Positions 11,747 to 64,000 of a stretch of 64,000 nucleotides of DNA are shown one piece after another. A program made the translations under genes and the position numbers. The stretch lies in the IMG/VR virus record IMGVR_UViG_3300033067_001533; one strand, given 5' to 3'. The notes under the pieces are model-generated. The model was not told the origin of the DNA. It did no database searches and was given only the letters and a program-made list of their open reading frames with translations. Numbering within the stretch: position 1 is the first letter of the stretch; each line of letters begins with the position of its first letter. The DNA comes from a virus.

Positions 11747-12400
11747 TTAAAAATTTGTTTCGTTAGTTTTATATTTGTTGTGATATTCTACGATTTTATC
11801 TCTGGCCTCTAATGCAGTATCTACTATTCTAAACAATCCTAAGTCCTTTTCGCTAATCATTCCGTTTTCAACAGCAGTATCTTTTAACCATTGGATTAAT
11901 CCACTCCAATATTCCTTACCAACGAGTACAATAGGATATTTAATGTTATGTCCACATTGTGCAAGTGTAACTGCTTCAAAAAATTCATCAAGAGTTCCAA
12001 GACCTCCTGGAAATACTACAAAGCCTTGTGAATATTTAAGGAACATTACCTTTCTTGTAAAGAAGTATCTACATTCAACCCCAAGGTCAACATACTGATT
12101 CATTCCAGCTTCGAACGGTAATTCAATACCAATTCCAATGGATTTACCACGAGACTCCTTAGCACCTTGGTTTGCAGCTTGCATAATACCTGGACCTCCT
12201 CCTGTAATTACACCAAATCCTTCTCCACTAATTAATGAACCAAATTTTCTTGCCTCTTCATACCATTTACTTCCCTCCTCTGTTCTTGCACTTCCAAATA
12301 CTGAAATACATGCATCAAGTTCGCTAAATATATCAAATCCTTTTGTAAATTCTCCCTGGATTCTTAAAATCTGCCAGGCATCTTCCGCTTTATTTATCAT
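11747..12400 (-). CDS. LOG-family protein (Rossmann-fold nucleotide-binding; cytokinin riboside 5'-monophosphate phosphoribohydrolase-like / nucleotide N-glycosidase)
   Basis: VITGGGPGIMQAANQGA and VVFPGGLGTLDEFFEA match the LOG GGGxGxM and PGGxGTxxE motifs. Confidence 0.75.
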   Translation of the reverse strand: MINKAEDAWQILRIQGEFTKGFDIFSELDACISVFGSARTEEGSKWYEEARKFGSLISGEGFGVITGGGPGIMQAANQGAKESRGKSIGIGIELPFEAGMNQYVDLGVECRYFFTRKVMFLKYSQGFVVFPGGLGTLDEFFEAVTLAQCGHNIKYPIVLVGKEYWSGLIQWLKDTAVENGMISEKDLGLFRIVDTALEARDKIVEYHNKYKTNETNF

Positions 12401-13952: not shown

Positions 13953-13960
13953 ATTTATAG

Positions 13961-14040: not shown

Positions 14041-14121
14041 GGTTTAATATTTACAGGATAACTTTGTTTGAGTTTGCAGATCAATTTTGTTAATTTGCTG
14101 AACGTATCCTTTAAAATATCG

Positions 14122-15308: not shown

Positions 15309-15911
15309 CTATTTAAATTGATCTTTTTGTTTCAATATATGGTGTAATGGTATTAAATTATTTTCAGATTCAAATCGTTCTGGATGCCATTGCACTGCCC
15401 AAATATTTAATTTACTATCTTCAATTCCTTCTGGTATATTTCCACCATCAACCGATCTGTATGTGACTTTAAAATTCTTTGCAACCTTGTGACAATATTG
15501 ATGATGTCTACTATTAACCATAAATGTATTGCCAAATTCATCCTGTACCCTATGATATTGTGATACTCTTTCTCCATGGTCATCGTCATCCTCAAATGAA
15601 TCCAATCTATGTGATTCTGTGATAGTGTTATTTAAACTTTTAACAATACCACCAAAATAAACATTTAAGATTTGCATACCCCGACAGATACCAATAATTG
15701 GTTGGCCATTTTCAATAGCGCTTCGTATCCAACTAAATTCTTGCATGTCTCTCTTTCGATTAATACCAACATCTGCACCACCACATAGAAGTAATGGTTG
15801 ATTTATTACCTTGATGTTTGGATTTAATAGAGTGTGACTGATATCATATCTATTTAGCCACTGTATGTATTGTTCTAATTCAATAGAACCCTTTGGAGGC
15901 GCTATAAACAT
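15309..15911 (-). CDS. class I glutamine amidotransferase-like / C26 gamma-glutamyl hydrolase-like protein
   Basis: IIGICRGMQILNV (nucleophile Cys in G-x-C-x-G-x-Q) and WAVQWHPE (His/Glu of triad). Confidence 0.65.
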   Translation of the reverse strand: MFIAPPKGSIELEQYIQWLNRYDISHTLLNPNIKVINQPLLLCGGADVGINRKRDMQEFSWIRSAIENGQPIIGICRGMQILNVYFGGIVKSLNNTITESHRLDSFEDDDDHGERVSQYHRVQDEFGNTFMVNSRHHQYCHKVAKNFKVTYRSVDGGNIPEGIEDSKLNIWAVQWHPERFESENNLIPLHHILKQKDQFK

Positions 15912-16128: not shown

Positions 16129-16371
16129 TTATTTTGTATAATTTCTATCTAATAAATCATGCCATGTTAAAACTCCAACCAGATGTGGAAGTGAACTTGA
16201 ATCAGTATGCATTTCCCAATCTCCATCAAAGTTTGTGAATTGTATTTGATAAAAGTTTTCATGAATAGTTACTATACACTTTTCATTTGCCCATTTATTG
16301 ATACCTACGTTTTTAAATGAGTTTCTTTCTAAGAAAGAATCTACATAAGGATTAATAATCTCTTCTGCCAT
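16129..16371 (-). CDS. hypothetical protein
   Basis: ORF track. Confidence 0.4.
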   Translation of the reverse strand: MAEEIINPYVDSFLERNSFKNVGINKWANEKCIVTIHENFYQIQFTNFDGDWEMHTDSSSLPHLVGVLTWHDLLDRNYTK

Positions 16372-18600: not shown

Positions 18601-19092
18601 TCCATCGAGTTTTCTTGAAACAAACCAAATATCATTATTAAGGTCGACCTTCTTTGCCATTTTCTCATCATAAGAATTTGCCAATGCAACGTCAAATGTT
18701 GGAATCAGTCCAGGAATCACCTTATTAATCATTGAAGTAGTCGATCTGGTTTTAAGGTTTCTATCAATGATATTAAAAATTAACTCCTCATAGTCCTTGT
18801 TTGCCTCTATAAAACCATTAACACAACTAATCGCAAGGTGCCCTGTAATAAATCGATCATTTAAATCATCAAGTAGTGTTGATAAATCTGAATAAGAATA
18901 TTTAACTAAATGTGAATTCTTTTTACAATTTTCTGAAGTAACTCCATATTGTTTAAAAGTATTGTAAGTGTAGTTAAGAGCCTTACATACTGATTCATTA
19001 TCTGCATACTTTTTAAGTATGTTTAATTTGTCAGTGTTTGAATTTGTCTGATTCGACGCATTAACAAAGTCTTGAATGTCTTGTAATTTCAT
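18283..19092 (-). CDS. N-terminal part of ATP-dependent DNA ligase (through KxDG adenylation motif I) fused to N-terminal split-intein fragment (IntN, ~105 aa)
   Basis: ...FVSRKLDG|CLHADTIIEFEDG...: catalytic-lysine motif KLDG followed by Cys1 and CLxxDT (block A); LTGNH (block B); ORF ends ~105 aa after Cys1, the length of known IntN fragments. Confidence 0.75.
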   Translation of the reverse strand: MKLQDIQDFVNASNQTNSNTDKLNILKKYADNESVCKALNYTYNTFKQYGVTSENCKKNSHLVKYSYSDLSTLLDDLNDRFITGHLAISCVNGFIEANKDYEELIFNIIDRNLKTRSTTSMINKVIPGLIPTFDVALANSYDEKMAKKVDLNNDIWFVSRKLDGCLHADTIIEFEDGTKISIKEVVDNKVEGKIKSYNINSNKIEFKTIKNWMVNLDDINENNSEWFEIELENGKKIKLTGNHRVWLPELRCWRRTDELNGDEKLLITI

Positions 19093-22472: not shown

Positions 22473-23117
22473 TTATTCGTGGTGGTCCTTAAATGTAAAC
22501 ATTGATTTGATAGGTTGCTTGTCTAGAATAGAAAGAACCTCGCGTAATTCAATTGGATTAAAATTATTTCCATCAACTCCAACATCCATCATTTTTCCAG
22601 GACCAACTCTTTTGCCCTTTGACAAGTGAACATGTCCATGCAAATGCTTAACACCTTGTCCCATGTCTTGCCAACTTGCAATTGGAAAGTGACATAGCAC
22701 AAATCTGTGTTTTTGGGCTGGTAGGTTTTTTGCCTTTGCCTGCTCAACAATTGTTAAGTAACACATATCATGCACACTTTTAAAAAGTCCTTTGACCCCT
22801 TCTTTATCATTTTTGATATGATGGTCATGGTTGCCTAAAATTAAGTGTACATTTTTACATACAATAAGATTTCTAAACTCTTCTATTTTTTCAAATCCAC
22901 CAAAACTCCAGTCACCTAGGTGAATCAAGATATCATCTTCTCCTACTGTATTGTTTATACCTTCAACAATTGAACTGTTCATCTGATGTAACGTGTTAAA
23001 CTCACGTGTACCTCTTGAACCATCCCATTCCGATATTCCTCTACAGATATTCGTATGATTATAATGTGTATCTGATGTAAAAAATACTCTTTGTCCTTTT
23101 TCTACTACGATTTTCAT
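22473..23117 (-). CDS. calcineurin-like metallophosphoesterase
   Basis: FFTSDTHYNH (DxH), LGDWSFGG (GD), ILGNHDHH (GNH[DE]) motifs. Confidence 0.65.
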   Translation of the reverse strand: MKIVVEKGQRVFFTSDTHYNHTNICRGISEWDGSRGTREFNTLHQMNSSIVEGINNTVGEDDILIHLGDWSFGGFEKIEEFRNLIVCKNVHLILGNHDHHIKNDKEGVKGLFKSVHDMCYLTIVEQAKAKNLPAQKHRFVLCHFPIASWQDMGQGVKHLHGHVHLSKGKRVGPGKMMDVGVDGNNFNPIELREVLSILDKQPIKSMFTFKDHHE

Positions 23118-25376: not shown

Positions 25377-26087
25377 TTATATAAATGTTATTTCGTTTGT
25401 TTCAGGGTTCCAATCAAATGTAACTGGTTTGTTTACATAATCATATCTTTCATTTAAAATACTTGCATTAAAGAAATGCGTGCCATTATGAAATTTATAA
25501 CCATAACTTCCATGTATATGTCCAAATACATGAATCTTTGGTGGTTGTGCATCTACCTTTTCTCTAAGCAATGCACAACCTAAATGTCCTTCATTATATG
25601 GAGGTCCGCTTACATCTAAATGGTCTTGCGGAGGTCCATGTGTAATAAGGATATCAGTATCTTCTGGAATTGCCTCCCATTTTGACATTAATCCGGGACC
25701 ACCCTTTGGTAAGTTAAACGCCCAATCATAAAACCAGGGTTGCCATGGGCTTCCATATATTTTAATCATGGTTTCATCGTTAAATTGGCCATCATCGCCT
25801 ATTTTAATCCATGAATCTTGTAAATATGTTATTAACTTATATGAGTTAACAATCGCCATTGCTCTTTCCGGAAAATCCTCAAACATATGGTCATGATTAC
25901 CTGCAATAAAAATTTTTGAATTGTAATTTTGTTCGTCAAACCACTTGCAAAAATCTTTAATATCTTCTAAATTTCTACCCGAATTCATAAGATCTCCGGC
26001 ATGGATTAATATATCTCCACCTGGTAAATCTCCGTCAAGTTCCCAATGTTTCGTATGAGTGTCAGATATTAAGGTAATTCTTTGCAT
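25377..26087 (-). CDS. calcineurin-like metallophosphoesterase
   Basis: LISDTHTKH (DxH), HAGDLMN (GD), IAGNHDH (GNHD) motifs. Confidence 0.65.
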   Translation of the reverse strand: MQRITLISDTHTKHWELDGDLPGGDILIHAGDLMNSGRNLEDIKDFCKWFDEQNYNSKIFIAGNHDHMFEDFPERAMAIVNSYKLITYLQDSWIKIGDDGQFNDETMIKIYGSPWQPWFYDWAFNLPKGGPGLMSKWEAIPEDTDILITHGPPQDHLDVSGPPYNEGHLGCALLREKVDAQPPKIHVFGHIHGSYGYKFHNGTHFFNASILNERYDYVNKPVTFDWNPETNEITFI

Positions 26088-26088
26088 T

Positions 26089-26565
26089 TTAATTTATATT
26101 TTTTAATTCGCTTCTTAATCGACCTATTGCTGCTTCCAATGTATTATAGACTGGAATGTTAAATCTACTACAAACAATATCTACATTTCCTTTACGATAA
26201 AAATCATCTGGGCAACATACAATCATTTTTTCTAGATTTGCATATAATCCAAGTTCTAATAGACTAATTGGACTCTTGGTTTCTGGTGAAAAGTACATGA
26301 AAATTAGGTCAGATTTATCAAGATGGTCTAATTCCCAATTAACTTGATAGTTAAATTCAGGGTTAGATTCCTTTTGTTCCCATGAACTGTCCCAATCATC
26401 TCTACGAGGATTAAAGAAAGTTAAATCGTTGCGATCTTTAAATAGCTGTGGAATCATTGCTTGCCAATCTTCGGCTTTTCCCATTTCGATAGAACCTGCT
26501 AAAAATATTTTAATACTTTTATCAGAATATACTCGGTTTTTTGGTTCTGGTTTAATTACTTCCAT
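26089..26565 (-). CDS. nucleoside 2-deoxyribosyltransferase-like protein
   Basis: KIFLAGSIEMG resembles the (Y/F)LAGP(F/L) N-terminal motif of the NDT/DNPH1 family; directly downstream of NAMPT. Confidence 0.4.
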   Translation of the reverse strand: MEVIKPEPKNRVYSDKSIKIFLAGSIEMGKAEDWQAMIPQLFKDRNDLTFFNPRRDDWDSSWEQKESNPEFNYQVNWELDHLDKSDLIFMYFSPETKSPISLLELGLYANLEKMIVCCPDDFYRKGNVDIVCSRFNIPVYNTLEAAIGRLRSELKNIN

Positions 26566-28031
26566 TATGCTTGCTTTAAACGTTCACGAATTTCAGTTAG
26601 GGTGGTTTGATTTTCAAATTGACCATTTATATAAATTGCCTGCAGTGCTCCTCCTGTTCCATTTTCAATGTCCCATTGCACTTTATCAAAAAGTTTAAAT
26701 GTACCATCTTCCATTTTCTTAACAAATAATAATCCAGTTGCTGATTTTTTAGTTCCATCATCAGTGATTGGATCTTTAAAGATTTCTCTTCCTTCACCGT
26801 TAACTTCTACATAGGTTGCTTTCATTGCAAATCCAAAAGTATCTCTTGTGTTAAATTGATATGTAAAACTTCCAATACCTAATACAACGTTAGTACTTGC
26901 GAAACCTTTGGCTTCTAATCTTCTACAAATCTCATCGGCTCTATCAATTGTGATTGAATCTCCATAGATAGCCCCGATGTGAGAGTCAAGAACTTTATAA
27001 CCTTGTTCGTTGATAGTTCCGCCAAATACATCCCAAAGTAATTCAATAACACCTTTTTCTTCTGGAGTTATAGATTTTCTTAAAGGATGCCATTTAGTAC
27101 CGCAAAGAATATCGACTGGGTCACCGCTATCAGGGCGAATAACCAATTTACCATCACGGGCTAAGATTTCTTCTTTAAGAGTTACAACATGTTCAGTACA
27201 AACTCTCCAAAGATCCCATGTGTCCGAGACTACGCTTAAAATTCCGGTTGGATAGGTATCTAATAATCTTCGGAATGTTTCTATCTCATCTTCTTTACCT
27301 CCAGCACACATTACAGAATGTTCAGTGGCATTGACAGAACCCGCAACAGCACCTTCAGCGCCATAGTACTTTCTTGCACCATAGATTGCTGGTAAACTAT
27401 CGGTTCCCATAAAACTTGTTAAGTGAGCAACCCCTGATGAGATTACAGCATCAACACTATCCATACCTCTCATTGAAAAATCATGTCCTTGCCAATCAAT
27501 AAACCAACCTTTTTCTGCATCTGTTTTTTCTTGCCATTTAGTTAATACCTTACGATATGTATGTGCAATTGTGGCAGAAGTCATTGGTTTCCATAATAGG
27601 TTAGAGATAATAGTCTCCAAGTAATTTGTAATCCAATAAAAATCTGGATGTGTATTGTAAATTGTCAAAACCGGTACCTTAATAGGCACTAAACTACCCT
27701 CTGGAAGTGCCTTAACGACAATTGGTAAATAACCTAAATCGTGTAGAGCTTCAAAGTGACTTACATCATAATCTGAACCTAAGTACATTGACAACTCTGC
27801 TTTCATTTCGCCGCAAACTTCAGCCTTTGGTTTACTAAAAAATTCATTAGCAAATGCTTCGTGAATTTGTTTGATTACCATTTGTTGGCCAAAAGAGACT
27901 AATTGGTCACACCCTTTAGGTGCATACTTGTTACTTCTTGGTGTGAAGTTTGAATAAACTAAAGTTGTTCCTTTAGGATATTGTTGGTGATGGCCACATT
28001 TATAGCCGTCAGTAAGAAATAATGGATTCAT
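26565..28031 (-). CDS. nadV: nicotinamide phosphoribosyltransferase (NAMPT/NadV family; a Namat-like alternative cannot be excluded)
   Basis: 488 aa; N-terminus NPLFLTDGYKCGHHQQYPKGT matches NAMPT N-terminal substrate-binding segment (…TDSYKVTHYKQYPP…). Confidence 0.8.
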   Translation of the reverse strand: MNPLFLTDGYKCGHHQQYPKGTTLVYSNFTPRSNKYAPKGCDQLVSFGQQMVIKQIHEAFANEFFSKPKAEVCGEMKAELSMYLGSDYDVSHFEALHDLGYLPIVVKALPEGSLVPIKVPVLTIYNTHPDFYWITNYLETIISNLLWKPMTSATIAHTYRKVLTKWQEKTDAEKGWFIDWQGHDFSMRGMDSVDAVISSGVAHLTSFMGTDSLPAIYGARKYYGAEGAVAGSVNATEHSVMCAGGKEDEIETFRRLLDTYPTGILSVVSDTWDLWRVCTEHVVTLKEEILARDGKLVIRPDSGDPVDILCGTKWHPLRKSITPEEKGVIELLWDVFGGTINEQGYKVLDSHIGAIYGDSITIDRADEICRRLEAKGFASTNVVLGIGSFTYQFNTRDTFGFAMKATYVEVNGEGREIFKDPITDDGTKKSATGLLFVKKMEDGTFKLFDKVQWDIENGTGGALQAIYINGQFENQTTLTEIRERLKQA

Positions 28032-28047
28032 AATTTGTTTGTTTTAA

Positions 28048-28130
28048 TTTTGATATGTAAATATAATCAATTTATTTTGATTCCGAAAACATTTTTTAAT
28101 TTATTTTCAAAAAGTTATTAGCAATTACCA
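28048..28130 (-). promoter_or_regulatory. conserved promoter element (GTTATTAGCA module) upstream of NAMPT
   Basis: ttgatatgtaaatataatcaatttattttgattccgaaaacattttttaatttattttcaaaaagttattagcaatt. Confidence 0.45.
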
Positions 28131-28613
28131 GTCACTAGAACTTGAGCTTCCTGAATCATAAGAAGATCCTGAATCATAAGCGTATGAATCTGAACTGCTA
28201 GATGAACTATCACTCCAATCTCCTCCAGACCCTCCGCCGGAGAAATCTCCACCTCCAAAACCTCCATCAAAACCAGGATCTTTTGAATTGGGATCGCTGT
28301 CATTTAATGCATCTCCAGCGATTGCTCCAAAAATATCTCCACCAACTAAGGCGCCAGCAACCGTAGAATCTGTTACAGCAGCAACTGCCATTGAAGTTAA
28401 GAAATTTGATTCATCTTCTCTAGCTTTTTTACGGGAACTTTCATAGATTTCATCGCGACGAATGCGCTCTGCTTCTACGATTTCTCTCATACGTTTTTCT
28501 TTATCAATAGTATTAGTACCAGAAATTCCATTAGGAGTGTAATATGATTCTTTCATTTGTAAACCTTGAGGTTCTACTTCTGTAATTCCGAATAATCTTT
28601 TAAACCAATTCAT
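28125..28613 (-). CDS. hypothetical protein with Gly/Ser/Asp-rich low-complexity C-terminal tail
   Basis: FGGGDFSGGGSGGDWSDSSSSSSDSYAYDSGSSYDSGSSSSSDW tail. Confidence 0.4.
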   Translation of the reverse strand: MNWFKRLFGITEVEPQGLQMKESYYTPNGISGTNTIDKEKRMREIVEAERIRRDEIYESSRKKAREDESNFLTSMAVAAVTDSTVAGALVGGDIFGAIAGDALNDSDPNSKDPGFDGGFGGGDFSGGGSGGDWSDSSSSSSDSYAYDSGSSYDSGSSSSSDW

Positions 28614-28616
28614 ATC

Positions 28617-28859
28617 TTATTTGTTAAATGCTTTTAAATAAATTGCTTGTTGTCTAATTCCAAATTCTCTGGTAAGAACGTTTGCTGGCATCTCATCTTT
28701 CATGAAATAATTTAAGCCAATAATCATTTTTTCCGCATCGAATTTACGTTCTCTTCCCTGAATCATTCCTTCAGGATCTGCCAGTTTATTAATAATAAAA
28801 GCCAAAGCTTCTGCTGTTTCAGCTTGATTAACCATTTGCCATGTTTCTAACTCTGTCAT
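28617..28859 (-). CDS. hypothetical protein
   Basis: ORF track; promoter motif upstream (28872-28935). Confidence 0.4.
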   Translation of the reverse strand: MTELETWQMVNQAETAEALAFIINKLADPEGMIQGRERKFDAEKMIIGLNYFMKDEMPANVLTREFGIRQQAIYLKAFNK

Positions 28860-28871
28860 AATTTATATGGT

Positions 28872-28935
28872 TTTAATTATGGTGTAAATATAATTATTTC
28901 GGGTGAACCGTGAAAATTTATTTGCAATTATTTTT
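28872..28935 (-). promoter_or_regulatory. conserved promoter element
   Basis: ttatggtgtaaatataattatttcgggtgaaccgtgaaaatttatttgcaatt. Confidence 0.45.
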
Positions 28936-29063
28936 TATTTTTTTTACGTTTGTATAAACTTTTTAATTTAGTTGCATCTATTTTTTCATGAGTACTTACG
29001 TGACTGAACATAAGTATCGCAAATGTAATGCACAAAGCTCCAACAGATATTAATATTACTTCC
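28925..29063 (-). CDS. small single-TM protein (~45 aa, below ORF-track cutoff)
   Basis: Hand translation MEVILISVGALCITFAILMFSHVSTHEKIDATKLKSLYKRKKNKK. Confidence 0.25.
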
Positions 29064-29066
29064 ATA

Positions 29067-29522
29067 TTACATTTCTACTAATTCATTAACGATCATTTTA
29101 ACTGTTCCGATGTCTGCACGACCTTGATATTTCTTATTAAATTCTCCAATAGTTTTACCAACAAGCGCCTGAGGATTTTTAATAGTTACTGAAAAATCCT
29201 GTAGAATTTCTTTAAGCGCTAGCGTAATTTCTTGCTCACTCATTTGTGCAGGCATATAGTTTCTAAGAACTTGTACTTCTTTAGTTTCTTTAAGCGCTAA
29301 TTCTGGTCTATTTGCCAAATCATACATTTTAATAGATTCCTCGCGCTGCTTGATTGCTTTATTAATGATTTTAATAATTTCTTCGTCAGTTGCAACCCAA
29401 GTTCCATTATTCTTTTCGGCATTCGTGATTGCCGCTTTAATACTATTAAGTGCCATTTTGGCTACTTCATCCTTTGCTTTCATTGCAGTTATAAAATCTG
29501 CGTTTATTTGTTCTCTAATCAT
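29067..29522 (-). CDS. GatB/YqeY-domain protein
   Basis: 151 aa; AMKAKDEVAKMALNSIKAAITNAEK... and C-terminal LALKEILQDF pattern typical of YqeY-like proteins. Confidence 0.55.
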   Translation of the reverse strand: MIREQINADFITAMKAKDEVAKMALNSIKAAITNAEKNNGTWVATDEEIIKIINKAIKQREESIKMYDLANRPELALKETKEVQVLRNYMPAQMSEQEITLALKEILQDFSVTIKNPQALVGKTIGEFNKKYQGRADIGTVKMIVNELVEM

Positions 29523-29764
29523 AATCCTTTTTCTTTTTTAAATATTTCTAATAGTTCTTTTGCTGTAAAGTAATCTCTTTTTATTAAGTGAAAATACTTT
29601 GCTTTTTGGCTTAATATTTTTTGCATTTGAGTACAACTAAGTGCCATCCACTCTGCAAACTCAATAGCGTAATCATCTGCTATTTCAACACAATTTTCTG
29701 CGTTATCTTCTCTGTTTGCATATTGATGGTCACAATAGCCTATAAACTTTTCTTTTAGTGTCAT
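29519..29764 (-). CDS. hypothetical protein
   Basis: ORF track. Confidence 0.35.
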   Translation of the reverse strand: MTLKEKFIGYCDHQYANREDNAENCVEIADDYAIEFAEWMALSCTQMQKILSQKAKYFHLIKRDYFTAKELLEIFKKEKGL

Positions 29765-29768
29765 CTTC

Positions 29769-29975
29769 TTAATTTTTTCTAATTCCGGTTACCATAATAT
29801 ATTTAAACATTCCACTCTTTTTAAAGAAGTGTTGGATAAAAGTTACCTCATATGTTATAAATCCACTATCGCTTTCCATGGTTATGGATTCATCAATTAA
29901 CGGCTTTTCAACTTCACACATGAAATCATGTTCTAAAACACCTTTATTCATTAAAATAAATCTACACTTCGTCAT
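29769..29975 (-). CDS. hypothetical protein
   Basis: ORF track. Confidence 0.35.
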   Translation of the reverse strand: MTKCRFILMNKGVLEHDFMCEVEKPLIDESITMESDSGFITYEVTFIQHFFKKSGMFKYIMVTGIRKN

Positions 29976-31014
29976 CCCATCTTTTTTTAGTAATTACTTT
30001 TCCGTTTTTGTCGTAATATTTTACTTTGCTTTCATCGTATGGTTCAACATCCTTTACGAATACCCATGAGCTTTGTTTTACGTTATGTGTTCCACCACTC
30101 CAGTCTCCATAGATTTCAACTTCGCCTTCTCTAATACCAATTACGGTAAATGGCGCAGCATCTGCTGGAAAATAGACTAAGTCACCTAATTTAGGACTAT
30201 GTGGTACAGTACTTTGTTCAACATCTATATTTCCTTTTGAATTGCTTAATAAGCCAGATAAAAAGAATGGATCCTGTGTAAAGATTGGAGTATGAATTTC
30301 TTGCCATTTGTTTCTGGTAAAAGTTCCATTATCATTTGTTGTTATAACTTCTACTTTGGCAATTACTGCTCCTCTTTTCTTACGAAAATCACAATCATTC
30401 CAATTAATTCCTTTCTGAAAGATCATCTCTTGCATTTGATCAGTTTTAACACCATGGAGTTCTTTAGTACTATAAAGACTTTGAGCAACTGAAGAGATTG
30501 AATTTCTTACAGCATCTTGTTGTCTCCAGATAAAATAGTTTTTAACCTCATCAATAAATGGAATTTGAAATGCTCTAGCGTCGAATTCTGCCATTTTAAA
30601 TGTTTCAATATCATGGTGGAATGAAAAAGAACCATCAGTTCTAGCAATTCTCTTCAACCTAAGTTTATTAAATTCTGCAGTGGCCATAGAAGCTGCAACT
30701 GATACCATTTTCTGTAGGTTATTGTCAAACCATGCATGAGTTCCTAACTCATCAAAGTCTGTTAGGACTAAACTAATCTCATCTGATTGTACATAACCGA
30801 ATTTAGCACCTTGGATGTTTTTACATAGATATGCTGTAGTTGCATTCATGTCTTCAATAAGACCCTCATCAAATGGTCTCTCTAATCCTTTCGTGTAGGT
30901 GTGAAAGGCTTTTCCGTCAATACGGATAATTGTAAATGTTCTCCTTGGGAGTTTGATCCTGGTTCTATCTTCGTAGAACTCTTTCATGCGATCGCCTAAT
31001 GCATCGTTTTTCAT
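29962..31014 (-). CDS. tRNA(His) guanylyltransferase (Thg1)-like protein with ~100-aa C-terminal extension
   Basis: DRMKEFYEDRTRIKLPRRTFTIIRIDGKAFHTYTKGLERPFDEGL...AKFGYVQSDEISLVL matches Thg1 N-terminal catalytic region (…VVRIDG+AFH+F…PFD..…QSDEIS). Confidence 0.75.
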   Translation of the reverse strand: MKNDALGDRMKEFYEDRTRIKLPRRTFTIIRIDGKAFHTYTKGLERPFDEGLIEDMNATTAYLCKNIQGAKFGYVQSDEISLVLTDFDELGTHAWFDNNLQKMVSVAASMATAEFNKLRLKRIARTDGSFSFHHDIETFKMAEFDARAFQIPFIDEVKNYFIWRQQDAVRNSISSVAQSLYSTKELHGVKTDQMQEMIFQKGINWNDCDFRKKRGAVIAKVEVITTNDNGTFTRNKWQEIHTPIFTQDPFFLSGLLSNSKGNIDVEQSTVPHSPKLGDLVYFPADAAPFTVIGIREGEVEIYGDWSGGTHNVKQSSWVFVKDVEPYDESKVKYYDKNGKVITKKRWDDEV

Positions 31015-31079
31015 AATATATGTTATTGCGCAACCGTCGTTAGTTGGATGCTGGTTTATAAGTATTATATTAAATACTT

Positions 31080-31883
31080 TTATTTTGTTTCAGTTTTCCA
31101 TTTAGGGTCAAACCAAAATGTTCTACCATTTCTATCAACAACTTTACTTGAGCCTGGTCTACTGTAACAAATCATAAATTCTGACCATGAACTCATTTCT
31201 GATTCTTTACTGAATGGATTTTCCCAATCCTTTAACTGCCCACATCCTAATTTATATGCTTGCATTGGAGCCCATCTACATAGTTGATATATCTCAGGAT
31301 TACTTTGTAATGCTTCTCTTGCACTAATAAATGGATTTACATTAACCCTATATAAGATTTCAGCACGTAAATAATTGCCGATACCATTAAAGTATTTTTG
31401 ATTCATTAATGCCTCACAAATAGGTTTATCAAAATCTTTTTTATGTAGATTAGATTTGATATTTCTAACAAAGTTTTGAAACTCAAGTGTTGGATCTGGT
31501 CCTCTATTATCTGACCATTCCTCTGCAAACTTCCATTTGCCAAATCTGCGAACATCTACAAAACTTAAGGTATGGCCATCTGTACTATAAAATTTAAGAT
31601 GTGCATGTTTTGCTTCTTTGCCAGTTTCAGTGAGTTGAAAATGCCCTGACATTCCCATTGTCATTCGAATAGGTACATACATATATGGTGCAGCTTCATT
31701 TTCATAAAGATACATAACAATTTCTTTACCTTTACTTTTAGCCTTAATCTTAAATTTAGAATATGGCGCTGGAAATTCAATACCTTTATGTGTGGGATTC
31801 TTTTCTATTTTAAAGAATTCTCTACCTTCGGATGCTGCATTAATATATTCTGAAGTTAATCTTAATTCTGCTAATTCTGGCAT
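31080..31883 (-). CDS. Fpg/Nei-family DNA glycosylase/AP lyase
   Basis: N-terminal MPELAEL (canonical MPELPEV with Pro2/Glu3 catalytic residues); H2TH-like FNGIGNYLRAEILYRVNVNPF. Confidence 0.65.
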   Translation of the reverse strand: MPELAELRLTSEYINAASEGREFFKIEKNPTHKGIEFPAPYSKFKIKAKSKGKEIVMYLYENEAAPYMYVPIRMTMGMSGHFQLTETGKEAKHAHLKFYSTDGHTLSFVDVRRFGKWKFAEEWSDNRGPDPTLEFQNFVRNIKSNLHKKDFDKPICEALMNQKYFNGIGNYLRAEILYRVNVNPFISAREALQSNPEIYQLCRWAPMQAYKLGCGQLKDWENPFSKESEMSSWSEFMICYSRPGSSKVVDRNGRTFWFDPKWKTETK

Positions 31884-32054
31884 ATTCTATCTTAATTTAT
31901 TTTTGGCATATAGGTTGTTTGCGATTCTTTTAAAACTACCATCTCTAACTCCAACTTCCGCTGTGAATTTTGCAAATCGTGTTGTAGTTGTAAAGATACC
32001 TGTGTCACTTACAATAAATCCCATTTTTACCATTAATGCTTCTATCATGTTCCT

Positions 32055-32312
32055 TTAAATTAAGTCTTCTTTATCAATATAAGTCTCTGTTGAAAATCCG
32101 GAGTAATCGCTGAATTTATATTTTGAAACTCGAATTTTATCTTGTTTAAAACCTAAAATAGTTCCATAATAAGGTTCTAACTTATTTTTATTTGTTTTGT
32201 ATTTAACTGGATCGCCAATTTTCAATGATGGTTCTGTGTTAATTGATAAACTCATCGATATTAATGTACATCCTTTGCCTAAAATTATACCTTCAGAAGA
32301 TGATTTTGCCAT
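32055..32312 (-). CDS. hypothetical protein
   Basis: ORF track. Confidence 0.4.
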   Translation of the reverse strand: MAKSSSEGIILGKGCTLISMSLSINTEPSLKIGDPVKYKTNKNKLEPYYGTILGFKQDKIRVSKYKFSDYSGFSTETYIDKEDLI

Positions 32313-32416
32313 GTTTATTTCTTTTTAGATTGTTTTTTATATAATGACACTGATGTTCGTAATAAATTACACCATATTATAACGATTAGACAGGAGATAA
32401 TTAATGTTATCATATC

Positions 32417-33238
32417 TTATTTCTTTTTAATCTGTTGAAACCAACTAACAACTCTGTAAGGTTTGGTTGGATTTGTTTTTACATATTCTATTAAAATATT
32501 TTCAACCTCTTCCTCACTATACTTATTCTTGTCTTGTTCTTGTTGCCATTTAATTATTTCTTTACAAACTGCCATCATTAACTTTCCATTTGGAGTTGTA
32601 TGGTCAAATATCTTTGTATCTTCTCTTGTTTCATAACCAAAACTTGGAGCTAATTTCTCATAAGTGTTATGAAATAAAACAGCTAATTCAAGTGTTTCTT
32701 GTTTAAAGACTTTAGTGTTTAAGCTTCTTGATAAAATATTAGGATGGTTTATAGCTTCTTCTTTTGGAATGATTATTTTTAAAGATTGTTCATAATCATT
32801 TTTAAAATATCCTTTGCCAATTCGCACAAACTCACAACTTGGATTCTTAACAAACCATTCTAAAAACTCATCGTCAATATCTTGTACACCATCTTCGATT
32901 AGTTCTACGTTGGTTGTTAGGATTATTTTTAATTCTGTTTTTTGTACTCCTAAAACTTCTTCTTTTGTTGTTAATTGTCTTATAACAGGATAAGCGTTTT
33001 TGAATATGTCAAATACCCAATCTCCAATTTTAATTTCTTCATCAGAAGTAATGTAGATGTTATGTGGTTTAAAGCTATTATTTAATGCTTTTTCTAAACC
33101 CCAAAAATCAGCACCGCTAACTTTTCCATCATTAATAAACATTCCATCAATTTCTTTTTGAATACAGAATGATTTTAGTGTAGAGTTATATAATACTCTA
33201 CTTGGTTTGTCTGTTGATAATACATGAATGTTTTTCAT
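32417..33238 (-). CDS. hypothetical protein, MKNIH(I/V)LSTDKPSR paralog family copy 2
   Basis: MKNIHVLSTDKPSRVL...ITSDEEIKIGDWV...KIILTTNVELIEDGVQDIDDEFLEWFVKNPSCEFV. Confidence 0.5.
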   Translation of the reverse strand: MKNIHVLSTDKPSRVLYNSTLKSFCIQKEIDGMFINDGKVSGADFWGLEKALNNSFKPHNIYITSDEEIKIGDWVFDIFKNAYPVIRQLTTKEEVLGVQKTELKIILTTNVELIEDGVQDIDDEFLEWFVKNPSCEFVRIGKGYFKNDYEQSLKIIIPKEEAINHPNILSRSLNTKVFKQETLELAVLFHNTYEKLAPSFGYETREDTKIFDHTTPNGKLMMAVCKEIIKWQQEQDKNKYSEEEVENILIEYVKTNPTKPYRVVSWFQQIKKK

Positions 33239-33249
33239 AATTTATTTGT

Positions 33250-33320
33250 TTTAATTAGATATGTAAATATAACTATAATAATTGACAATAAAAAACTTTA
33301 AGCAACTATTTTTAAATATT
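33250..33320 (-). promoter_or_regulatory. conserved promoter element
   Basis: ttagatatgtaaatataactataataattgacaataaaaaactttaagcaactatttttaaatattttt. Confidence 0.4.
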
Positions 33321-33321
33321 T

Positions 33322-33510
33322 TTATACTTCAGCATATAACTGTATTAAGTTTAAACCGCCGCCTGTCATATACTTCCCGTACTTATCATCAAACTTTCCA
33401 CTATCAACAAAATTCTCGTCTTGCATGTCTTTGTAAAACTGATCTACTAAGTCAATAGGAACTACATACCAATGGCATGAATTATCTTGAATTGCTTTTA
33501 CTTTTTTCAT
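33322..33510 (-). CDS. hypothetical protein
   Basis: ORF track; promoter motifs on both sides. Confidence 0.35.
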   Translation of the reverse strand: MKKVKAIQDNSCHWYVVPIDLVDQFYKDMQDENFVDSGKFDDKYGKYMTGGGLNLIQLYAEV

Positions 33511-33514
33511 AATT

Positions 33515-33590
33515 TATTTGTTTTAATTAGATATGTAAATATAAACAAAAAACTCCAGACTAAAAAATCCGGAGTGTTAATATTTTGTTA
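33515..33590 (-). promoter_or_regulatory. promoter core fused to terminator-like hairpin variant (ACTCC...GGAGT)
   Basis: ttagatatgtaaatataaacaaaaaactccagactaaaaaatccggagtgttaatattttgtt. Confidence 0.4.
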
Positions 33591-33821
33591 AATTTTTTCA
33601 AGTTCAAATCTAAATTGTTCTTTGTCCTTTTTCCAAATCCTTTCTAATCTTTTCATTTCTTTAATAAAGATTGGATGATTATCAGAACTCATTTTACCAT
33701 ATCTAGTTTCAAGAGCATCAAACGCTTCACCTCTCATTGTAGTCCATTCTTTCATACAACCAGAACAAATTCTTCGATTGTCAAAGATATTCTTTTCACG
33801 ACATCTAGTACAGGTTCTCAT
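33588..33821 (-). CDS. small zinc-ribbon protein
   Basis: CTRC...CSGC. Confidence 0.4.
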   Translation of the reverse strand: MRTCTRCREKNIFDNRRICSGCMKEWTTMRGEAFDALETRYGKMSSDNHPIFIKEMKRLERIWKKDKEQFRFELEKI

Positions 33822-34181
33822 TCTGTTCGGTTTGCGTTATTTTCTAAATCATGTAATGTATGACAATTGTTGCAGTATATTAAAACGCGATCGTATGGTA
33901 AATTAGTATCATCACTTATCTCTTCAACTATCTCATAGTCAAACATGTCGTTTTGACCGCAGTTTCCACAGATAATATGTAATTTTGCATTTGCCATAGT
34001 TACTCAATTATACCTTGAACAACAGTTGTAGAAACTGGAAATGCCCATAACAGTTTATTTGTTTTTCCATATTCTCCTGCCCAAAAACAATATGAATAAC
34101 CTTCAATTGTCATTTCTCGACATTCGATAGTTCGTCTCCAAACTTCGTTTTCTATCCTGCATGTTATTTTATATTGTGCCA

Positions 34182-34760
34182 TTATTTAAACATGGTTTGT
34201 AATGTTGCTACATATGCAGCGTTTTTAAATGGATTTCCTTCAGTTTCTTTTGCTGCACCTATAAATAATTCTCTTGCCTTTACAATACCATGATATTTCA
34301 TAATTAAAGTTGCTACACTTGGAACAGTTTTAGGCATCTCTTCCCCATGTTCTTCAATAATTTTATCAACTTCGATCTTAATCTGCTCAATGTAAGTTGG
34401 TTTTAAATTATCTAATGCTTCTTCTAACATTTCAGCGAAGTATGTACCGCCATTATAGAATTGCCCAATAAATGAAAGGCTTCCATCACTATTTCTGTTA
34501 AGTTTCATGAAGTATTCTTCGTCAGAACTTTCTTCATGGTCAATGACTCTATAAAGATTCTCACCGTGAATAAAATACTCTTCATTTTGAACACTTCCAA
34601 ATTTAGATTCATATTCATCAAAAGCATCTCTAAAATCTTCTTGCCAATCTTCACCTAACACAATATTATGTCGGGCTGCAATGGCTCTGCAAGTCTCTTC
34701 TAAACTTTTTTCATGTTTAACTGGATAAAGTTTTCCTGTGTGAAATTCTGTTCTACTCAT
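34182..34760 (-). CDS. hypothetical protein
   Basis: ORF track. Confidence 0.4.
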   Translation of the reverse strand: MSRTEFHTGKLYPVKHEKSLEETCRAIAARHNIVLGEDWQEDFRDAFDEYESKFGSVQNEEYFIHGENLYRVIDHEESSDEEYFMKLNRNSDGSLSFIGQFYNGGTYFAEMLEEALDNLKPTYIEQIKIEVDKIIEEHGEEMPKTVPSVATLIMKYHGIVKARELFIGAAKETEGNPFKNAAYVATLQTMFK

Positions 34761-35047
34761 TATATGATTGTGTGTTTGTGTTTTAAATTAAAGTGAATAA
34801 CTCTCATGTGCTTAGGAAATCCCTGTATTGGGTACATTTTAACGTTCAATTCAGTGTTTTTAAACCAACCTATGGGTGCATACAACTTGTGCCAAATCTC
34901 ATAAACCTTTTCTATTAAATGGTCCTGTGAATTATTTGAAGCATCTTCATCAAATACAAAATGATCTGTAACAATTACATTGCCGCAGTCAAGTAACTGA
35001 TCAATTGCATAATTTGCAATTCTTGTTGTTCTACCACTTCGTCTCAT
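34760..35047 (-). CDS. hypothetical protein
   Basis: ORF track. Confidence 0.4.
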   Translation of the reverse strand: MRRSGRTTRIANYAIDQLLDCGNVIVTDHFVFDEDASNNSQDHLIEKVYEIWHKLYAPIGWFKNTELNVKMYPIQGFPKHMRVIHFNLKHKHTII

Positions 35048-35204
35048 TATTCTTCGTCTCTTTGATTAAATCCAGTTGCTCGTGCTAAAATAAAAAATGG
35101 GATTACTATGGCATAAAATTGCCATTGCATAAATGATATATGGCCAAAACATGCCAATGAAAAACCTAACCATAAAGGCGCTACTAATTTATATGATTTC
35201 ATAC

Positions 35205-35720
35205 TTATGGTTTATAAATTACTACTGACACTTTCATGTCTTTTAATTCTGTTTGAATAATCTTCTTAATTCTGTTCCAATCTCCGCCAGCCAATCCAGC
35301 TCCAATCTTTGGCAATCCAATATGTTTACCTTCAAATTGAAAATTGATCTTACGCATACAAAGAGTTAATGCCTCATAGTCTAATGGTTTTGAAACTCCA
35401 TCAGTATGATTTCTACCATAACGAAATTGAGTGTATGAATTTACAACCACTAATTCAGGCTCATTCAATTTATTGTCTGCTCTATCTAAAGACCAAATTG
35501 AATTTTTTCCAAGAACAAATGTTTTCCAATCAATGCAACCTAGTTTTTCAATTGTTGCACCCCAGGTTTCCATTTCAAATGTATTAACTCCAAATGCTTT
35601 TGCCATTTGCGGAGCTATTCCAGCTCCCATATTTGACAAACAATTACAGCCATGTGTGATTACATCAAATTCTCCCTGTTTTGCTAGTGCAATTAAATCA
35701 CCTTCTATTTCTTGATACAT
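35205..35720 (-). CDS. Macro-domain protein (ADP-ribose binding/hydrolase)
   Basis: GDLIALAKQGEFDVITHGCNCLSNMGAGIAPQMAKAF matches Macro-domain N-terminal core (…VNAAN..L.GGGVAGAI…). Confidence 0.65.
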   Translation of the reverse strand: MYQEIEGDLIALAKQGEFDVITHGCNCLSNMGAGIAPQMAKAFGVNTFEMETWGATIEKLGCIDWKTFVLGKNSIWSLDRADNKLNEPELVVVNSYTQFRYGRNHTDGVSKPLDYEALTLCMRKINFQFEGKHIGLPKIGAGLAGGDWNRIKKIIQTELKDMKVSVVIYKP

Positions 35721-35721
35721 C

Positions 35722-36228
35722 TTATGCTAATCTAAAGTTATTTAAAAATCTTCTTAAGAATACAATTCTTTGTGCTTCTTGTTCTGAATCACTGAATTTC
35801 ATTGTCCAGTTCCAATATTCAGCGCTATTTGGTACTCCATTTAAATAATATGGTCCATCATAATCTGGCCAAGCAACTTTATCAAAAACTCTGTCATCGA
35901 CTAAGAAAACTACTGCAGTTAATTGGTCACCTAAATCTGGCTCAAAGAAACTACTGAATTGAACACCCTCGTCTGATAATAATTGTCTGTGATTATTTAA
36001 AGAACCTACATGATTATTATTTTCATCGTATCTTGTGTTCGTAGTACCGCCATTTAAAATGATAAATGTTTTATCTTCTCTGGCCCATTTTTGATACGCT
36101 TCAGTACTACCAAATTCTAATCCATATTCAACAACAGCATGGCCGAATTGAATTCCTTGTTGGATTGGGCTTAAATTATAAGGGACCAGGCCATACATTC
36201 TATAAGTTCTATCCTTCATTTGTTTCAA
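35722..36228 (-). CDS. hypothetical protein (weak resemblance to PTH2-type peptidyl-tRNA hydrolase AQ..HA motif)
   Basis: SPIQQGIQFGHAV segment; weak. Confidence 0.25.
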   Translation of the reverse strand: MKQMKDRTYRMYGLVPYNLSPIQQGIQFGHAVVEYGLEFGSTEAYQKWAREDKTFIILNGGTTNTRYDENNNHVGSLNNHRQLLSDEGVQFSSFFEPDLGDQLTAVVFLVDDRVFDKVAWPDYDGPYYLNGVPNSAEYWNWTMKFSDSEQEAQRIVFLRRFLNNFRLA

Positions 36229-36362
36229 ATTTTGTAGAGTCTAATTCGGCATAAACTTCCACTGATTGTAACTCATATCTAGAGCCTAAAATTGGGTCTT
36301 GTACCAATATTAATTGGTCTACTGTTTCTGTGGTCATTGGTGTTTGTTTTTCGTTGCTCATC

Positions 36363-36575
36363 TTATATTAATTTTAAAAATTTTAATTCTTCTACTGCTG
36401 CTTCAAATGCTTCTTGCCATGTTCGATATAAATACCATTCTCTGACCTGAATCAGTTCATAATTTCCAAAGTGTTCATATTTATATATGTCAAATGCAAA
36501 TTTAGGAGCACTTGTTCTATCTAAACCAATTTCTATAACAAAGCCTAATGTGGCTAATGAATCTATAGTGTACAT
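36363..36575 (-). CDS. hypothetical protein
   Basis: ORF track. Confidence 0.35.
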   Translation of the reverse strand: MYTIDSLATLGFVIEIGLDRTSAPKFAFDIYKYEHFGNYELIQVREWYLYRTWQEAFEAAVEELKFLKLI

Positions 36576-37453
36576 TATATTACTTTAAATGCGGTTGTAT
36601 GTGTTTTTTCTTCATATTCATTATCGGCAATATCTCTATAAGAATTTGTAGTGTAAATATGTTCGAAGTTGCGTGATAATTCTTTAAAACCAGCACTAAA
36701 TATTCCATGGGTTACTACCAAATAAATTTTGGCATCTGCTCTCTGTGCTTTGATTGCTTTGGCAAGTTCGTTAAATGTTCTACCGCCATCACAAATATCA
36801 TCAATGATTACATATTGTAAATCATCGCCAACCAATCCTGGTAAGTCTGGAATCTCAGTTTTAAGAATGTTACCAGTTCTCATGTCTCTAACCTTATTTG
36901 CGGTAACGACATTTTGAATTTGAAATTTCTTAGCAACGTCGAAGATTTTTTTGTATGCTCCAGCATCTGGGCTTACTAAGCAAATTCTCTCTTTCGCATC
37001 TTTCTTATTGTCGATTTCTGTAAGTGCGTATTTAACTACGGTGTGATTATCTAATTTCTCGTAGTTATTTAAACATGCCTCTAAGACATCTGAATGAGGA
37101 TCTAATGTAATTACCGTTACAAAATTTAGGGAATTGATAATCGGACAAATTACTTGTTTTAAATAATTAACTCCACCATCAACAAATTTACGGTCTGAAC
37201 GAGCTCCTATAAAATATGGAACGTAAAGAGCAATTTCTCTGTTTGGTTTAATATTTCTGATTGCAGCTGTTGCACAAATGATCAGTTCTAAGTCCTTAAA
37301 ACTATTTAAACGTGAACTGATTTTCACAGCATCATCATATACTACTAAGTCATTCCAATCAATAAGATCTATTGTTTGTTGACCATCTGGAAATTGACTA
37401 ATTTTGTATTTAATCTGTGATTTTTCTAGATTAACCAAGTCTAATGTTATCAT
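36575..37453 (-). CDS. prs: ribose-phosphate pyrophosphokinase (PRPP synthetase) family protein; could alternatively be an ADP-ribose pyrophosphokinase-type homolog
   Basis: VITLDPHSD (DLHS-like), LVSPDAGAYKK, and PRPP-binding loop VIIDDICDGGRTF. Confidence 0.75.
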   Translation of the reverse strand: MITLDLVNLEKSQIKYKISQFPDGQQTIDLIDWNDLVVYDDAVKISSRLNSFKDLELIICATAAIRNIKPNREIALYVPYFIGARSDRKFVDGGVNYLKQVICPIINSLNFVTVITLDPHSDVLEACLNNYEKLDNHTVVKYALTEIDNKKDAKERICLVSPDAGAYKKIFDVAKKFQIQNVVTANKVRDMRTGNILKTEIPDLPGLVGDDLQYVIIDDICDGGRTFNELAKAIKAQRADAKIYLVVTHGIFSAGFKELSRNFEHIYTTNSYRDIADNEYEEKTHTTAFKVI

Positions 37454-44347: not shown

Positions 44348-45082
44348 TTATTGTTTAAAGGTTGGCATTAACCACATTCCATCTTTAAAGATTAATTCTA
44401 AAAATCCTGGAATAATCTCATCAACATCCATCAAGAGTCTAAAACTTCTAACTGTATTAAATCTCATCATCTTGTCAATTTCCTCTCTGATTCTTTGGCC
44501 ACTTACTGTTTGTTCAAGTTTCTTTAAGATGTTTGGTTGTTTCATTGCTTCCCATATATCGTCGCTCATCACAAAATCCTTTGTGATTGTAAATCTTAGG
44601 GCTCTTAGGATGCGTAATGGGTCATCCATCATTGTAACGTTAGCATCCATTGGAGTTCTTAGTACGCCAATCTTTAAATCTTCAATACCACCAAAAAGAT
44701 CGATAATGTTTCCATCGATATCTTCTGCAAGCGCATTTAGGGTAAAGTCTCTGCGTAGTAAATCATCTTCAAGAGTACCTAATTCTAAAATAGGTCGGCG
44801 GGTACCTTCAACGTATCCGACCTCTTTACGGGCCATTACAAAATCTGCAACTAATCCAGTAAACTGGTGGTCCTTTGGAAATTTGGCACGAATTGTAAAA
44901 CAATCTGGAGTACTTAAGAATATCTCAAATCCATTAACTGTCATCCAATCTGTCATGATTTCAAATCCGCTCTCTACTGTCCGATTTAAGTCATCTAACA
45001 CAAATGTGAAATCTATGTCCTTTGAGTCAATGCCAAGGAATTTATCCCTGATGCAACCTCCGACGCGATAGATATGTGGCAT
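44348..45082 (-). CDS. tRNA nucleotidyltransferase (CCA-adding enzyme) / poly(A) polymerase head-domain protein
   Basis: HIYRVGGCIRDKFLGIDSKDIDF matches GGxVRDxLLGxxxxDxD class II nucleotidyltransferase motif. Confidence 0.6.
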   Translation of the reverse strand: MPHIYRVGGCIRDKFLGIDSKDIDFTFVLDDLNRTVESGFEIMTDWMTVNGFEIFLSTPDCFTIRAKFPKDHQFTGLVADFVMARKEVGYVEGTRRPILELGTLEDDLLRRDFTLNALAEDIDGNIIDLFGGIEDLKIGVLRTPMDANVTMMDDPLRILRALRFTITKDFVMSDDIWEAMKQPNILKKLEQTVSGQRIREEIDKMMRFNTVRSFRLLMDVDEIIPGFLELIFKDGMWLMPTFKQ

Positions 45083-47576: not shown

Positions 47577-47594
47577 GATTTTTATTTGTTTAAT

Positions 47595-63685: not shown

Positions 63686-64000
63686 TTAAAAATTTTCATT
63701 ATTTATTATACAATCATAATTGATAAAGTTTCCAAACTGCTCACTATCTGCCTGGATTCTACGTTCAATTGTATCATCTTTATCATTTCGTTGATGTAAT
63801 CTTGCTCTTCTAGTTTCTTCTGGAATGTCTAGATAGATTACAAATAATCTTTCACGATATTCATCAGCTAGTAAATTTACAGCTTCTGCGTTTAAAATCA
63901 TTACATCACATCTTTCAAATTCATCCTTTGTTAAGCCATACTTCCAACCATTAAAATCTTGCCATTCAACAAATTCTCCTCTTTCGATCTTAGCGTCAAA
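63686..64000 (-). CDS. guanylate-kinase-like nucleoside monophosphate kinase, partial (N-terminus beyond window end)
   Basis: Reading frame open to position 64000; ...ERGEFVEWQDFNGWKYGLTKDEF resembles GMP kinase (E)GEFLEWAEV.GN.YGT block. Confidence 0.45.
   Translation of the reverse strand, partial: FDAKIERGEFVEWQDFNGWKYGLTKDEFERCDVMILNAEAVNLLADEYRERLFVIYLDIPEETRRARLHQRNDKDDTIERRIQADSEQFGNFINYDCIINNENF

Follow-up and report, generated by a model that had tools for sequence, protein, structure and literature searches.

A 64,000-nt stretch of the IMG/VR virus record IMGVR_UViG_3300033067_001533 (hereafter the window), belonging to a genome of probably >200 kb, appears to encode a dispersed NAD+ reconstitution pathway of the NARP1-AP type, a reading to which we assign a probability of roughly 0.8. 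Three genes make up the proposed pathway (Table 1): adps, for a protein related to phosphoribosyl pyrophosphate (PRPP) synthetase (Prs); namat, for a member of the NAMPT family; and a gene for a Macro-domain protein that likely serves as Adpp. The reading is carried by family membership, by kept substrate-binding and catalytic residues, and by a genomic linkage that is conserved across relatives. The core finding is a new example of the already-described NARP1, probably NARP1-AP, in an uncultured large-phage lineage. What is new here is modest, namely the dispersed layout of the genes and a tightly linked partner of the PF15891 family.

NARP1 consists of Adps, a Prs homologue that turns ADP-ribose (ADPR) plus ATP into ADPR-PP, and Namat, a Nampt homologue that uses ADPR-PP and nicotinamide to form NAD+, and it defeats Thoeris, DSR1/2, SIR2-HerA and SEFIR (Osterman et al. 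2024, bioRxiv 10.1101/2024.02.11.579819). In NARP1-AP the Macro-domain protein Adpp additionally lets NARP1 use the product of RES-domain phosphorolysis, as tested with the operon of Vibrio phage Gary (bioRxiv 10.64898/2026.01.28.702374). By analogy with homologues that have been tested from phages SPbetaL1, Bas63, ICP1 and Gary, the proteins of the window would have the same enzyme activities and the same anti-defence effect. Once a host defence (Thoeris, DSR1/2, SIR2-HerA, SEFIR or similar) has split NAD+ into ADPR and nicotinamide, Adps would move ATP's beta-gamma pyrophosphate onto ADPR at position 1'', yielding ADPR-PP, and Namat would join ADPR-PP and nicotinamide directly into NAD+. The Macro protein, most likely as Adpp, would strip the 1''-phosphate from ADPR-1''-P, the product of NAD+ phosphorolysis by RES-domain (aRES) proteins, and so allow that product to enter the pathway.

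The NAMPT-like protein is a predicted Namat

PHROG assignment does not tell Adps apart from Prs, nor Namat from Nampt, as E. coli Prs falls into phrog_619 (193 bits) and a KVP40-like Nampt into phrog_448 (548 bits), and both assignments were therefore based on trees and motifs. The initial annotation of this DNA had proposed NAD+ reconstitution of the Adps/Namat type and had suggested placing both proteins on phylogenies with canonical Prs and NadV; the resulting trees, together with the published residue signatures of both enzymes, bear the proposal out. In a neighbour-joining tree, 11 Namat-type sequences, among them that of the window, separated from five Nampt/NadV sequences in 200/200 bootstrap replicates. 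Among these controls are a KVP40-like phage Nampt and a Ralstonia NadV whose gene neighbours one for NadM-Nudix.

The window protein is 48-59% identical to Namat proteins (48-55% for homologues of known NARP1 carriers) versus 33-36% to Nampt/NadV. Identities from tblastn across phage genomes likewise fell into two bands, with known NARP1 carriers at 42-55% and T4-like or KVP40-like NadV at ~30%. Comparison with solved structures gave 540 bits for PDB 9w5x/9w5w versus 228-240 bits for Xanthomonas and mammalian Nampt, and the numbering and motif of 9w5x/9w5w (G390-S391-F392...Y396...T398-R399-D400) agree with the published SPbetaL1 Namat.

Residues that discriminate Namat have been described in a structural paper (PMC12774641) and include the motif GS-X-Phi1-X-Phi2-X-Phi3-TRD with aromatic X as well as a stacking Arg/Lys/Tyr in the SCL. 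The SCH motif of the window protein, GSFTYQFNTRD at residues 387-397, is an exact fit to the published motif, in place of which all five Nampt controls carry GG[AG]LLQ...RD. Its SCL, PRSNKYAPKG, is long and has Tyr36 directly after Lys35, in the Bas63-type arrangement, whereas the loops of the Nampt controls are short (SRGGKF; SRGG[KRE][FY]). The Nampt-like catalytic core, which comprises nicotinamide stacking, an Asp and the catalytic His, is kept, with D8, Y10, F185, R188, D211, H238, R299 and D301, including the equivalents of Arg306 and Asp308.

The Prs-like protein is a predicted Adps

The protein encoded by adps is, as judged from its sequence, an Adps and not a housekeeping Prs. It stays under every NCBIfam cutoff for Prs: the TIGR01251 score is 83 bits where 113 are required, and the equivalog Prs models, whose cutoffs are 296-536 bits, reach 33-71. 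The tested Gary Adps, at 118 bits and 33% identity, is a closer match than the best PDB Prs (48.6 bits), and identities to homologues of known NARP1 carriers range from 32 to 41%. A bootstrapped neighbour-joining tree (200 replicates) was built from 12 Adps-type and seven cellular Prs or Prs-like proteins. The Adps-type set comprised the window protein, two close relatives, proteins of phages Lbo-JY46, Gary, ICP1 and Bas63, proteins of Staphylococcus, Bacillus, Pseudomonas and Mycobacterium phages, and one from a Persicobacter plasmid, every one of them encoded adjacent or close to a Namat. The split between Adps-type and cellular Prs sequences was recovered in 198/200 replicates, with the window protein on the Adps side.

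Residue-level discriminators of Adps are likewise available from a structural paper (PMC13586617). Residues F18, R87, F92, H121, D161, K185, D212-D216, S220 and F221 of ICP1 Adps correspond to F21, R85, F90, H120, D163, K187, D218-D222, T226 and F227 in the window protein. F21, R85 and F90 are the contacts to the adenine of ADPR, and K187 matches the essential catalytic Lys185 of ICP1 Adps. The PP loop of the window protein, DDICDGGRTF (D218-D219-I220-C221-D222-G223-G224-R225-T226-F227), is identical to that of Bas63, versus DDMIDTGGTL in E. coli Prs; the Prs signature DTGGT of the ribose-5-phosphate loop is thus replaced by DGGRT. Across the alignment, Adps sequences carry DPHS (DLHA in Prs), K-x-R-D..TG-x-I (DKRRPR.N in Prs) and DDICDGG, and the window protein fits the Adps pattern throughout. 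The C-terminal helix of Prs (...AE.I.R...S.S..F), part of the alpha11-alpha12 regulatory/filament module, is absent from the alignment for both the window protein and the Adps sequences, and the window protein is 292 aa long versus 312-318 aa in cellular Prs.

Both proteins could in principle serve classical salvage of the NARP2-like or housekeeping kind, in which the Prs-like protein would make PRPP, the NAMPT-like protein would make nicotinamide mononucleotide (NMN), and an Nmnat of phage or host would complete NAD+. Membership in the Prs and NAMPT superfamilies and the common PHROG families are compatible with such a route, as is the finding that Namat enzymes keep some PRPP-dependent NMN synthesis in vitro (PMC12774641). 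We nevertheless consider it very unlikely, as both proteins lie outside the canonical clades, the Nampt motif and short loop are replaced by the Namat clamp, and the DTGGT signature and C-terminal helices of Prs are gone. NARP2 is defined by a PRPP-preferring Nampt together with Nmnat; in the published data 94% of genomes with a NARP2 Nampt encode Nmnat, and no phage has both pathways (bioRxiv 10.1101/2024.02.11.579819). No Nmnat, NadR, PnuC or Nudix protein (and no CTP_transf_like match) was found among the window open reading frames (ORFs) scanned, which comprised most ORFs of at least 130 aa. The window would resemble NARP2 of Vibrio phage KVP40 in restoring NAD+ from nicotinamide with a NAMPT-superfamily enzyme, but that enzyme belongs to the opposite clade. 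Of NARP3, which consists of a PnuC-like transporter and a NadR-like enzyme, neither family was detected in the same scan, and both NARP2 and NARP3 are therefore not supported.

A dispersed layout with conserved linkage

In the window, adps and namat are separated by 8,544 nt and 21 ORFs, and the genes in between have for the most part no relation to NAD (a PTH2-fold protein, an Fpg/Nei glycosylase, a Thg1-like protein and YqeY). Linkage was analyzed in 80 IMG/VR loci encoding a Namat 70-84% identical to that of the window. In 50/50 relatives, counted over loci with at least 9 kb of upstream sequence, no more than 10 kb separated Adps from Namat. The gap between the two genes, determined in 68 relatives, ranged from 0 to 9,372 nt (11 at <=100 nt, 25 at 0.1-1 kb, 24 at 1-5 kb and eight at >5 kb), and their order was inverted in five loci. 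The window thus represents the dispersed end of a continuum made by insertions into an ancestral operon, and the preservation of linkage along this continuum argues for a functional pair rather than a coincidence.

As in NARP1 of SPbetaL1, Bas63 and ICP1, the enzymes of the window fall into the Adps and Namat clades and retain the published catalytic, ADPR/ATP-binding and adenine-clamp residues. They differ from these systems in that their genes form no operon and lie beyond the ten-gene range, and in their source, an uncultured, low-GC, tRNA-rich large phage lineage. In the published survey, a Namat lay no more than ten genes away from 97% of the Adps genes (bioRxiv 10.1101/2024.02.11.579819). 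Pathway genes may, however, scatter over nearly 10 kb, and surveys that rely on adjacency (a Namat at most ten genes away, a Macro gene at most two) miss such loci. The reported NARP1 prevalence of 4.3% of phages is therefore likely an underestimate; detection by clade and motif (GS-X-Phi-X-Phi-X-Phi-TRD for Namat, the DDICDGG loop for Adps) would recover dispersed loci.

NARP1, and probably NARP1-AP, is thereby placed in a lineage of large, tRNA-rich phages that is uncultured and abundant. IMG/VR yielded more than 300 related stretches, with relatives on contigs of 160-290 kb, and for the window Adps alone, metagenomic contigs as long as 243 kb supply >100 close homologues with 75-100% identity. 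When the 12-kb region was compared by megablast with 50,697 phage records, no match was returned, and the phage is one without a close cultured relative. The nearest cultured Adps, at 44% identity, is that of Leptolyngbya phage Lbo-JY46; among the genes flanking Adps and Namat in that phage, none is homologous to the window's deoxyribosyltransferase (DRT)-like, Macro or 168-aa PTH2-fold proteins. Apart from its layout and its PF15891 partner, the locus is a case to be expected of an anti-defence system that has already been described.

Related arrangements were seen outside the window. Some relatives carry a NADAR-domain gene (166 bits, L012:12223-12699), absent from the window, inside the interval between Adps and Namat; it is present in 8/50 relatives and may be a further ADP-ribose-related accessory of the module. 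Plasmid 3 of Persicobacter sp. JZB09 (Bacteroidota; an unannotated record, L021:5157-7470) encodes an Adps-like protein (277 aa) adjacent to a Namat (489 aa) that, at 57-59% identity, is the closest to the window's from a cultured organism. In two Bacillus thuringiensis plasmid records (H134 and H137, each 235,425 bp), a Prs-like and a Namat-like match (51% identity) lie ~14 kb apart by their coordinates, which may represent a further case of dispersed NARP1, carried by a plasmid or prophage.

The Macro-domain protein and the case for NARP1-AP

The initial annotation had put forward the Macro protein as an extra ADP-ribose-processing step, which corresponds to NARP1-AP, whose Adpp and the window protein are homologous over their full length. 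The latter matches phrog_335 'phosphatase' (6.7e-45) and PDB macro domains. In direct comparison its closest characterized relative is the tested Gary Adpp, with 30% identity over the full length (E 2e-18), and it also aligns with a 'phosphatase' encoded beside Namat in Pseudomonas phage K8. All three proteins match one region of phrog_335 and have the motifs HxCNC..MGxGIA and GLPxIGxGLAGGDW in common. Macro is the fourth gene after adps, with three ORFs in between, and 17 ORFs separate it from namat. It is found near Adps in 23/50 of the IMG/VR relatives, where it always lies inside or beside the interval between Adps and Namat. On these grounds the Macro protein likely, though not certainly, acts as an Adpp, that is, as an ADPR-1''-phosphate phosphatase. 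As in phage Gary, Adps and Namat are accompanied by a Macro protein, which has its PHROG and motif set in common with the tested Adpp, but the Gary genes Adps-Adpp-Namat are contiguous, whereas the Macro gene of the window is dispersed and its product would share the Gary specificity by homology. A 'phosphatase' beside Namat in Bacillus phage ALPS was found not to be a Macro protein and was removed from the comparison.

Several observations weigh against the proposed pathway. Both trees are neighbour-joining trees on a small, hand-picked sample, and the search for Nmnat covered 64 kb of a genome of probably >200 kb, so that an Nmnat may lie elsewhere in it. As a consequence of the dispersed layout, adps and namat fall outside the published definition of NARP1 (within ten genes) and the Macro gene outside that of NARP1-AP (within two genes). 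A scan of 25.3-37.7 kb for promoters and terminators remained at shuffle expectation (63 vs 61 and 5 vs 4.6, respectively) and gave no support for an operon; the sole decent minus-strand terminator-like hairpin in this region is at 33575-33552. For the Macro protein itself, the Pfam Macro score of 17.9 bits is below the gathering score, and the family profile matches TARG1/OARD1 (3e-13) and DarG macro domains (5e-7) equally well as or better than full-length yeast Poa1p (E 1.9e-5); it also matches BT1257.

The lack of operon evidence and the 21 unrelated ORFs between adps and namat would suit an unrelated scatter of auxiliary genes of nucleotide metabolism, in which the two ends of the 11-kb interval have no pathway relation, as would three further genes (for a LOG enzyme, a class I GATase and a kinase fragment) with no demonstrable link. 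Synteny disfavors this: Adps accompanies Namat in all of the 50 relatives despite extensive rearrangement, and both proteins bear signatures specific to the coupled ADPR-PP chemistry. A chance assembly is thus extremely improbable.

A second alternative concerns the Macro protein only. The core NARP1 would be present and the Macro protein would stand outside it, either as a DarG/TARG1-like glycohydrolase acting against DarT-type toxins or in the processing of Appr-1''-P from phage tRNA repair. The family profile matches TARG1/OARD1 and DarG at least as well as Poa1p, so that sequence does not tell a phosphatase from TARG1- or DarG-like activities. The only NCBIfam match is the DarG macro domain, the surroundings are tRNA-related (the PTH2-fold protein, Thg1-like, YqeY and 24 tRNAs), and the gene is remote from namat and missing in about half of the relatives. 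We judge this alternative to be somewhat unlikely in view of the full-length relationship to the tested Gary Adpp and of the constant position of the Macro gene at the interval between Adps and Namat. Macro genes also occur alongside 15% of the published NARP1 operons (bioRxiv 10.64898/2026.01.28.702374).

A conserved PF15891 partner of namat

The DRT-like protein of the PF15891 family (Nuc_deoxyri_tr2) has conserved motifs that include KSPIxLLELG. Its E104 would presumably be the nucleophile, by analogy with nucleoside deoxyribosyltransferases and DNPH1. The nearest solved homologue is the uncharacterized protein PDB 4mcj (E 1.7e-30). The initial annotation had described the gene as adjacent to namat; its start overlaps the namat stop by one base, the two are translationally coupled, and it turned out to be the most conserved Namat companion in the lineage. 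It occurs in 57/80 Namat loci at a median distance of 262 nt from Namat, in 22 cases between Adps and Namat and in 35 downstream. A reciprocal search of viral contigs with the DRT-like family profile gave 47 loci flanked on either side by 6 kb or more, of which 43 contain Namat and 40 Adps as well, and these include lineages whose Namat is just 48-54% identical to that of the window.

The link between the DRT-like gene and Namat was demonstrated only in the environmental lineage. No Adps or Namat was present within 4-5 kb on each side of the DRT-like loci in Alishewanella and Lactobacillus 3-521 phages (by tblastn) or in Brevundimonas Gurke and Tunturi_5 phages (by deposited annotation). In the literature library searched, no paper mentioned NARP1 together with a deoxyribosyltransferase.

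The DRT-like protein is probably a further accessory enzyme alongside namat. Tentatively, and by analogy, it could be a third 'feeder' enzyme of NARP1 after Adpp and RyDEP: a glycosidase or base-exchange enzyme that may act on a non-canonical NAD+-derived product and deliver ADPR or nicotinamide to Adps and Namat. Candidate substrates may be a cyclic-ADPR-type Thoeris signal, another ADPR conjugate, or NMN/nicotinamide riboside. Such a role is plausible because RyDEP of mycobacteriophage DyoEdafos sets a precedent for a NARP1-adjacent glycosidase that supplies ADPR, in that case from 2'/3'cADPR (bioRxiv 10.64898/2026.05.28.727677). In contrast to that system, no RyR-domain protein was detected in the window, and the PF15891 protein is of a different fold family. 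If true, a feeder function would widen the range of defences that the pathway beats, and the conserved partner offers a concrete lead towards another step in the NAD+ arms race.

PF15891 genes occur in other phage contexts. In Tunturiibacter phage Tunturi_5, gp225 (L111:3986-7774; 1,262 aa), encoded beside the portal gene and labelled MutT/NUDIX in its record, has a PF15891-like domain fused to an ART-PolyVal ADP-ribosyltransferase. Lactobacillus phage 3-521 has a PF15891 gene 4 kb from a PnuC-type nicotinamide riboside/NMN transporter (L110:372-1166, 4977-5558). In the window, genes for calcineurin-like metallophosphoesterases lie at 25377-26087, directly downstream of the DRT-like gene, and at 22473-23117; the former is within 10 kb of Namat in just 14/64 relatives.

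Other features of the window

The window has a low GC content (~32%), and almost all of its genes are on the minus strand. The four ORFs on which the initial annotation was built, listed first in Table 1 with the PTH2-fold gene between two of them, were recovered with exactly the same boundaries.

Table 1. Position and assignment of genes discussed in the text.
Feature	Position	Strand	Size and matches
adps, Prs-like	36575..37453	-	292 aa; Pfam Pribosyltran/Pribosyl_synth
PTH2-fold conserved protein	35722..36228	-	168 aa; between adps and the Macro gene
Macro-domain protein, probable Adpp	35205..35720	-	171 aa; phrog_335, PDB macro domains
namat, NAMPT family (predicted)	26565..28031	-	488 aa, full-length; PRK09198 558 bits, NAPRTase 145 bits
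PF15891 Nuc_deoxyri_tr2, DRT-like	26089..26565	-	158 aa; 124 bits
LOG enzyme	11747..12400		Lysine_decarbox 116 bits
Class I GATase/Peptidase_C26	15309..15911		
Kinase fragment running past the window end	about 63689..64000	-	Guanylate_kin 19.6 bits, under cutoff
Hint/intein N-part	18283-19092	-	
DUF7487	17230-18231	-	
Intein C-part and ligase domains	16352-17266	-	

Also named in the initial annotation as lying nearby were the LOG enzyme, the GATase and a GMP-kinase fragment. The first two are confirmed at their positions on the minus strand, and the third is a fragment with a weak Guanylate_kin match; a link of any of them to the pathway did not emerge, and with no linkage or chemistry tying them to it they were dropped as pathway members.

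The PTH2-fold protein has no sequence match in Pfam or PDB and matches phrog_3668 'hydrolase' (3.6e-15). An AF2 model computed with an alignment reached a pLDDT of 85 (the single-sequence model, at 50, was unusable), and its best Foldseek matches are MJ0051, AF2095 and Bit1 (E about 1e-4, probability 1.0). Going by this model, the protein is probably a tRNA-related neighbour with the fold of peptidyl-tRNA hydrolase 2 (PTH2) that stands outside the NAD+ pathway; its gene is present in 18/50 relatives.

The window contains 24 tRNA genes in two minus-strand arrays (13791-14193 and 52390-57675), which account for a rise in GC content at 50-58 kb; one odd call is a tRNA-Tyr with anticodon ATA at 55086-55163. 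A theme of tRNA maintenance and repair is interleaved with the NAD genes (2114-2686, 29067-29522, 29962-31014, 35722-36228 and 44348-45082), with HAD_SAK_2, YqeY, a Thg1-like protein with a long C-terminal extension, the PTH2-fold protein and a PolyA_pol/CCA-adding-type nucleotidyltransferase as its members. Between the halves of the NAD module, at 31080-31883, lies a gene for an Fpg/Nei-family DNA glycosylase with a Neil1-type DNA-binding domain. An ATP-dependent DNA ligase on the minus strand (16352-19092) is apparently interrupted by an intein-like element and split over three ORFs (Table 1). Finally, a leucine-rich-repeat protein overlaps a papain-family cysteine protease, and a 1,068-aa collagen-repeat protein, probably a fibre, is encoded upstream of them on the coding strand (46674-48441 and 49057-52263).

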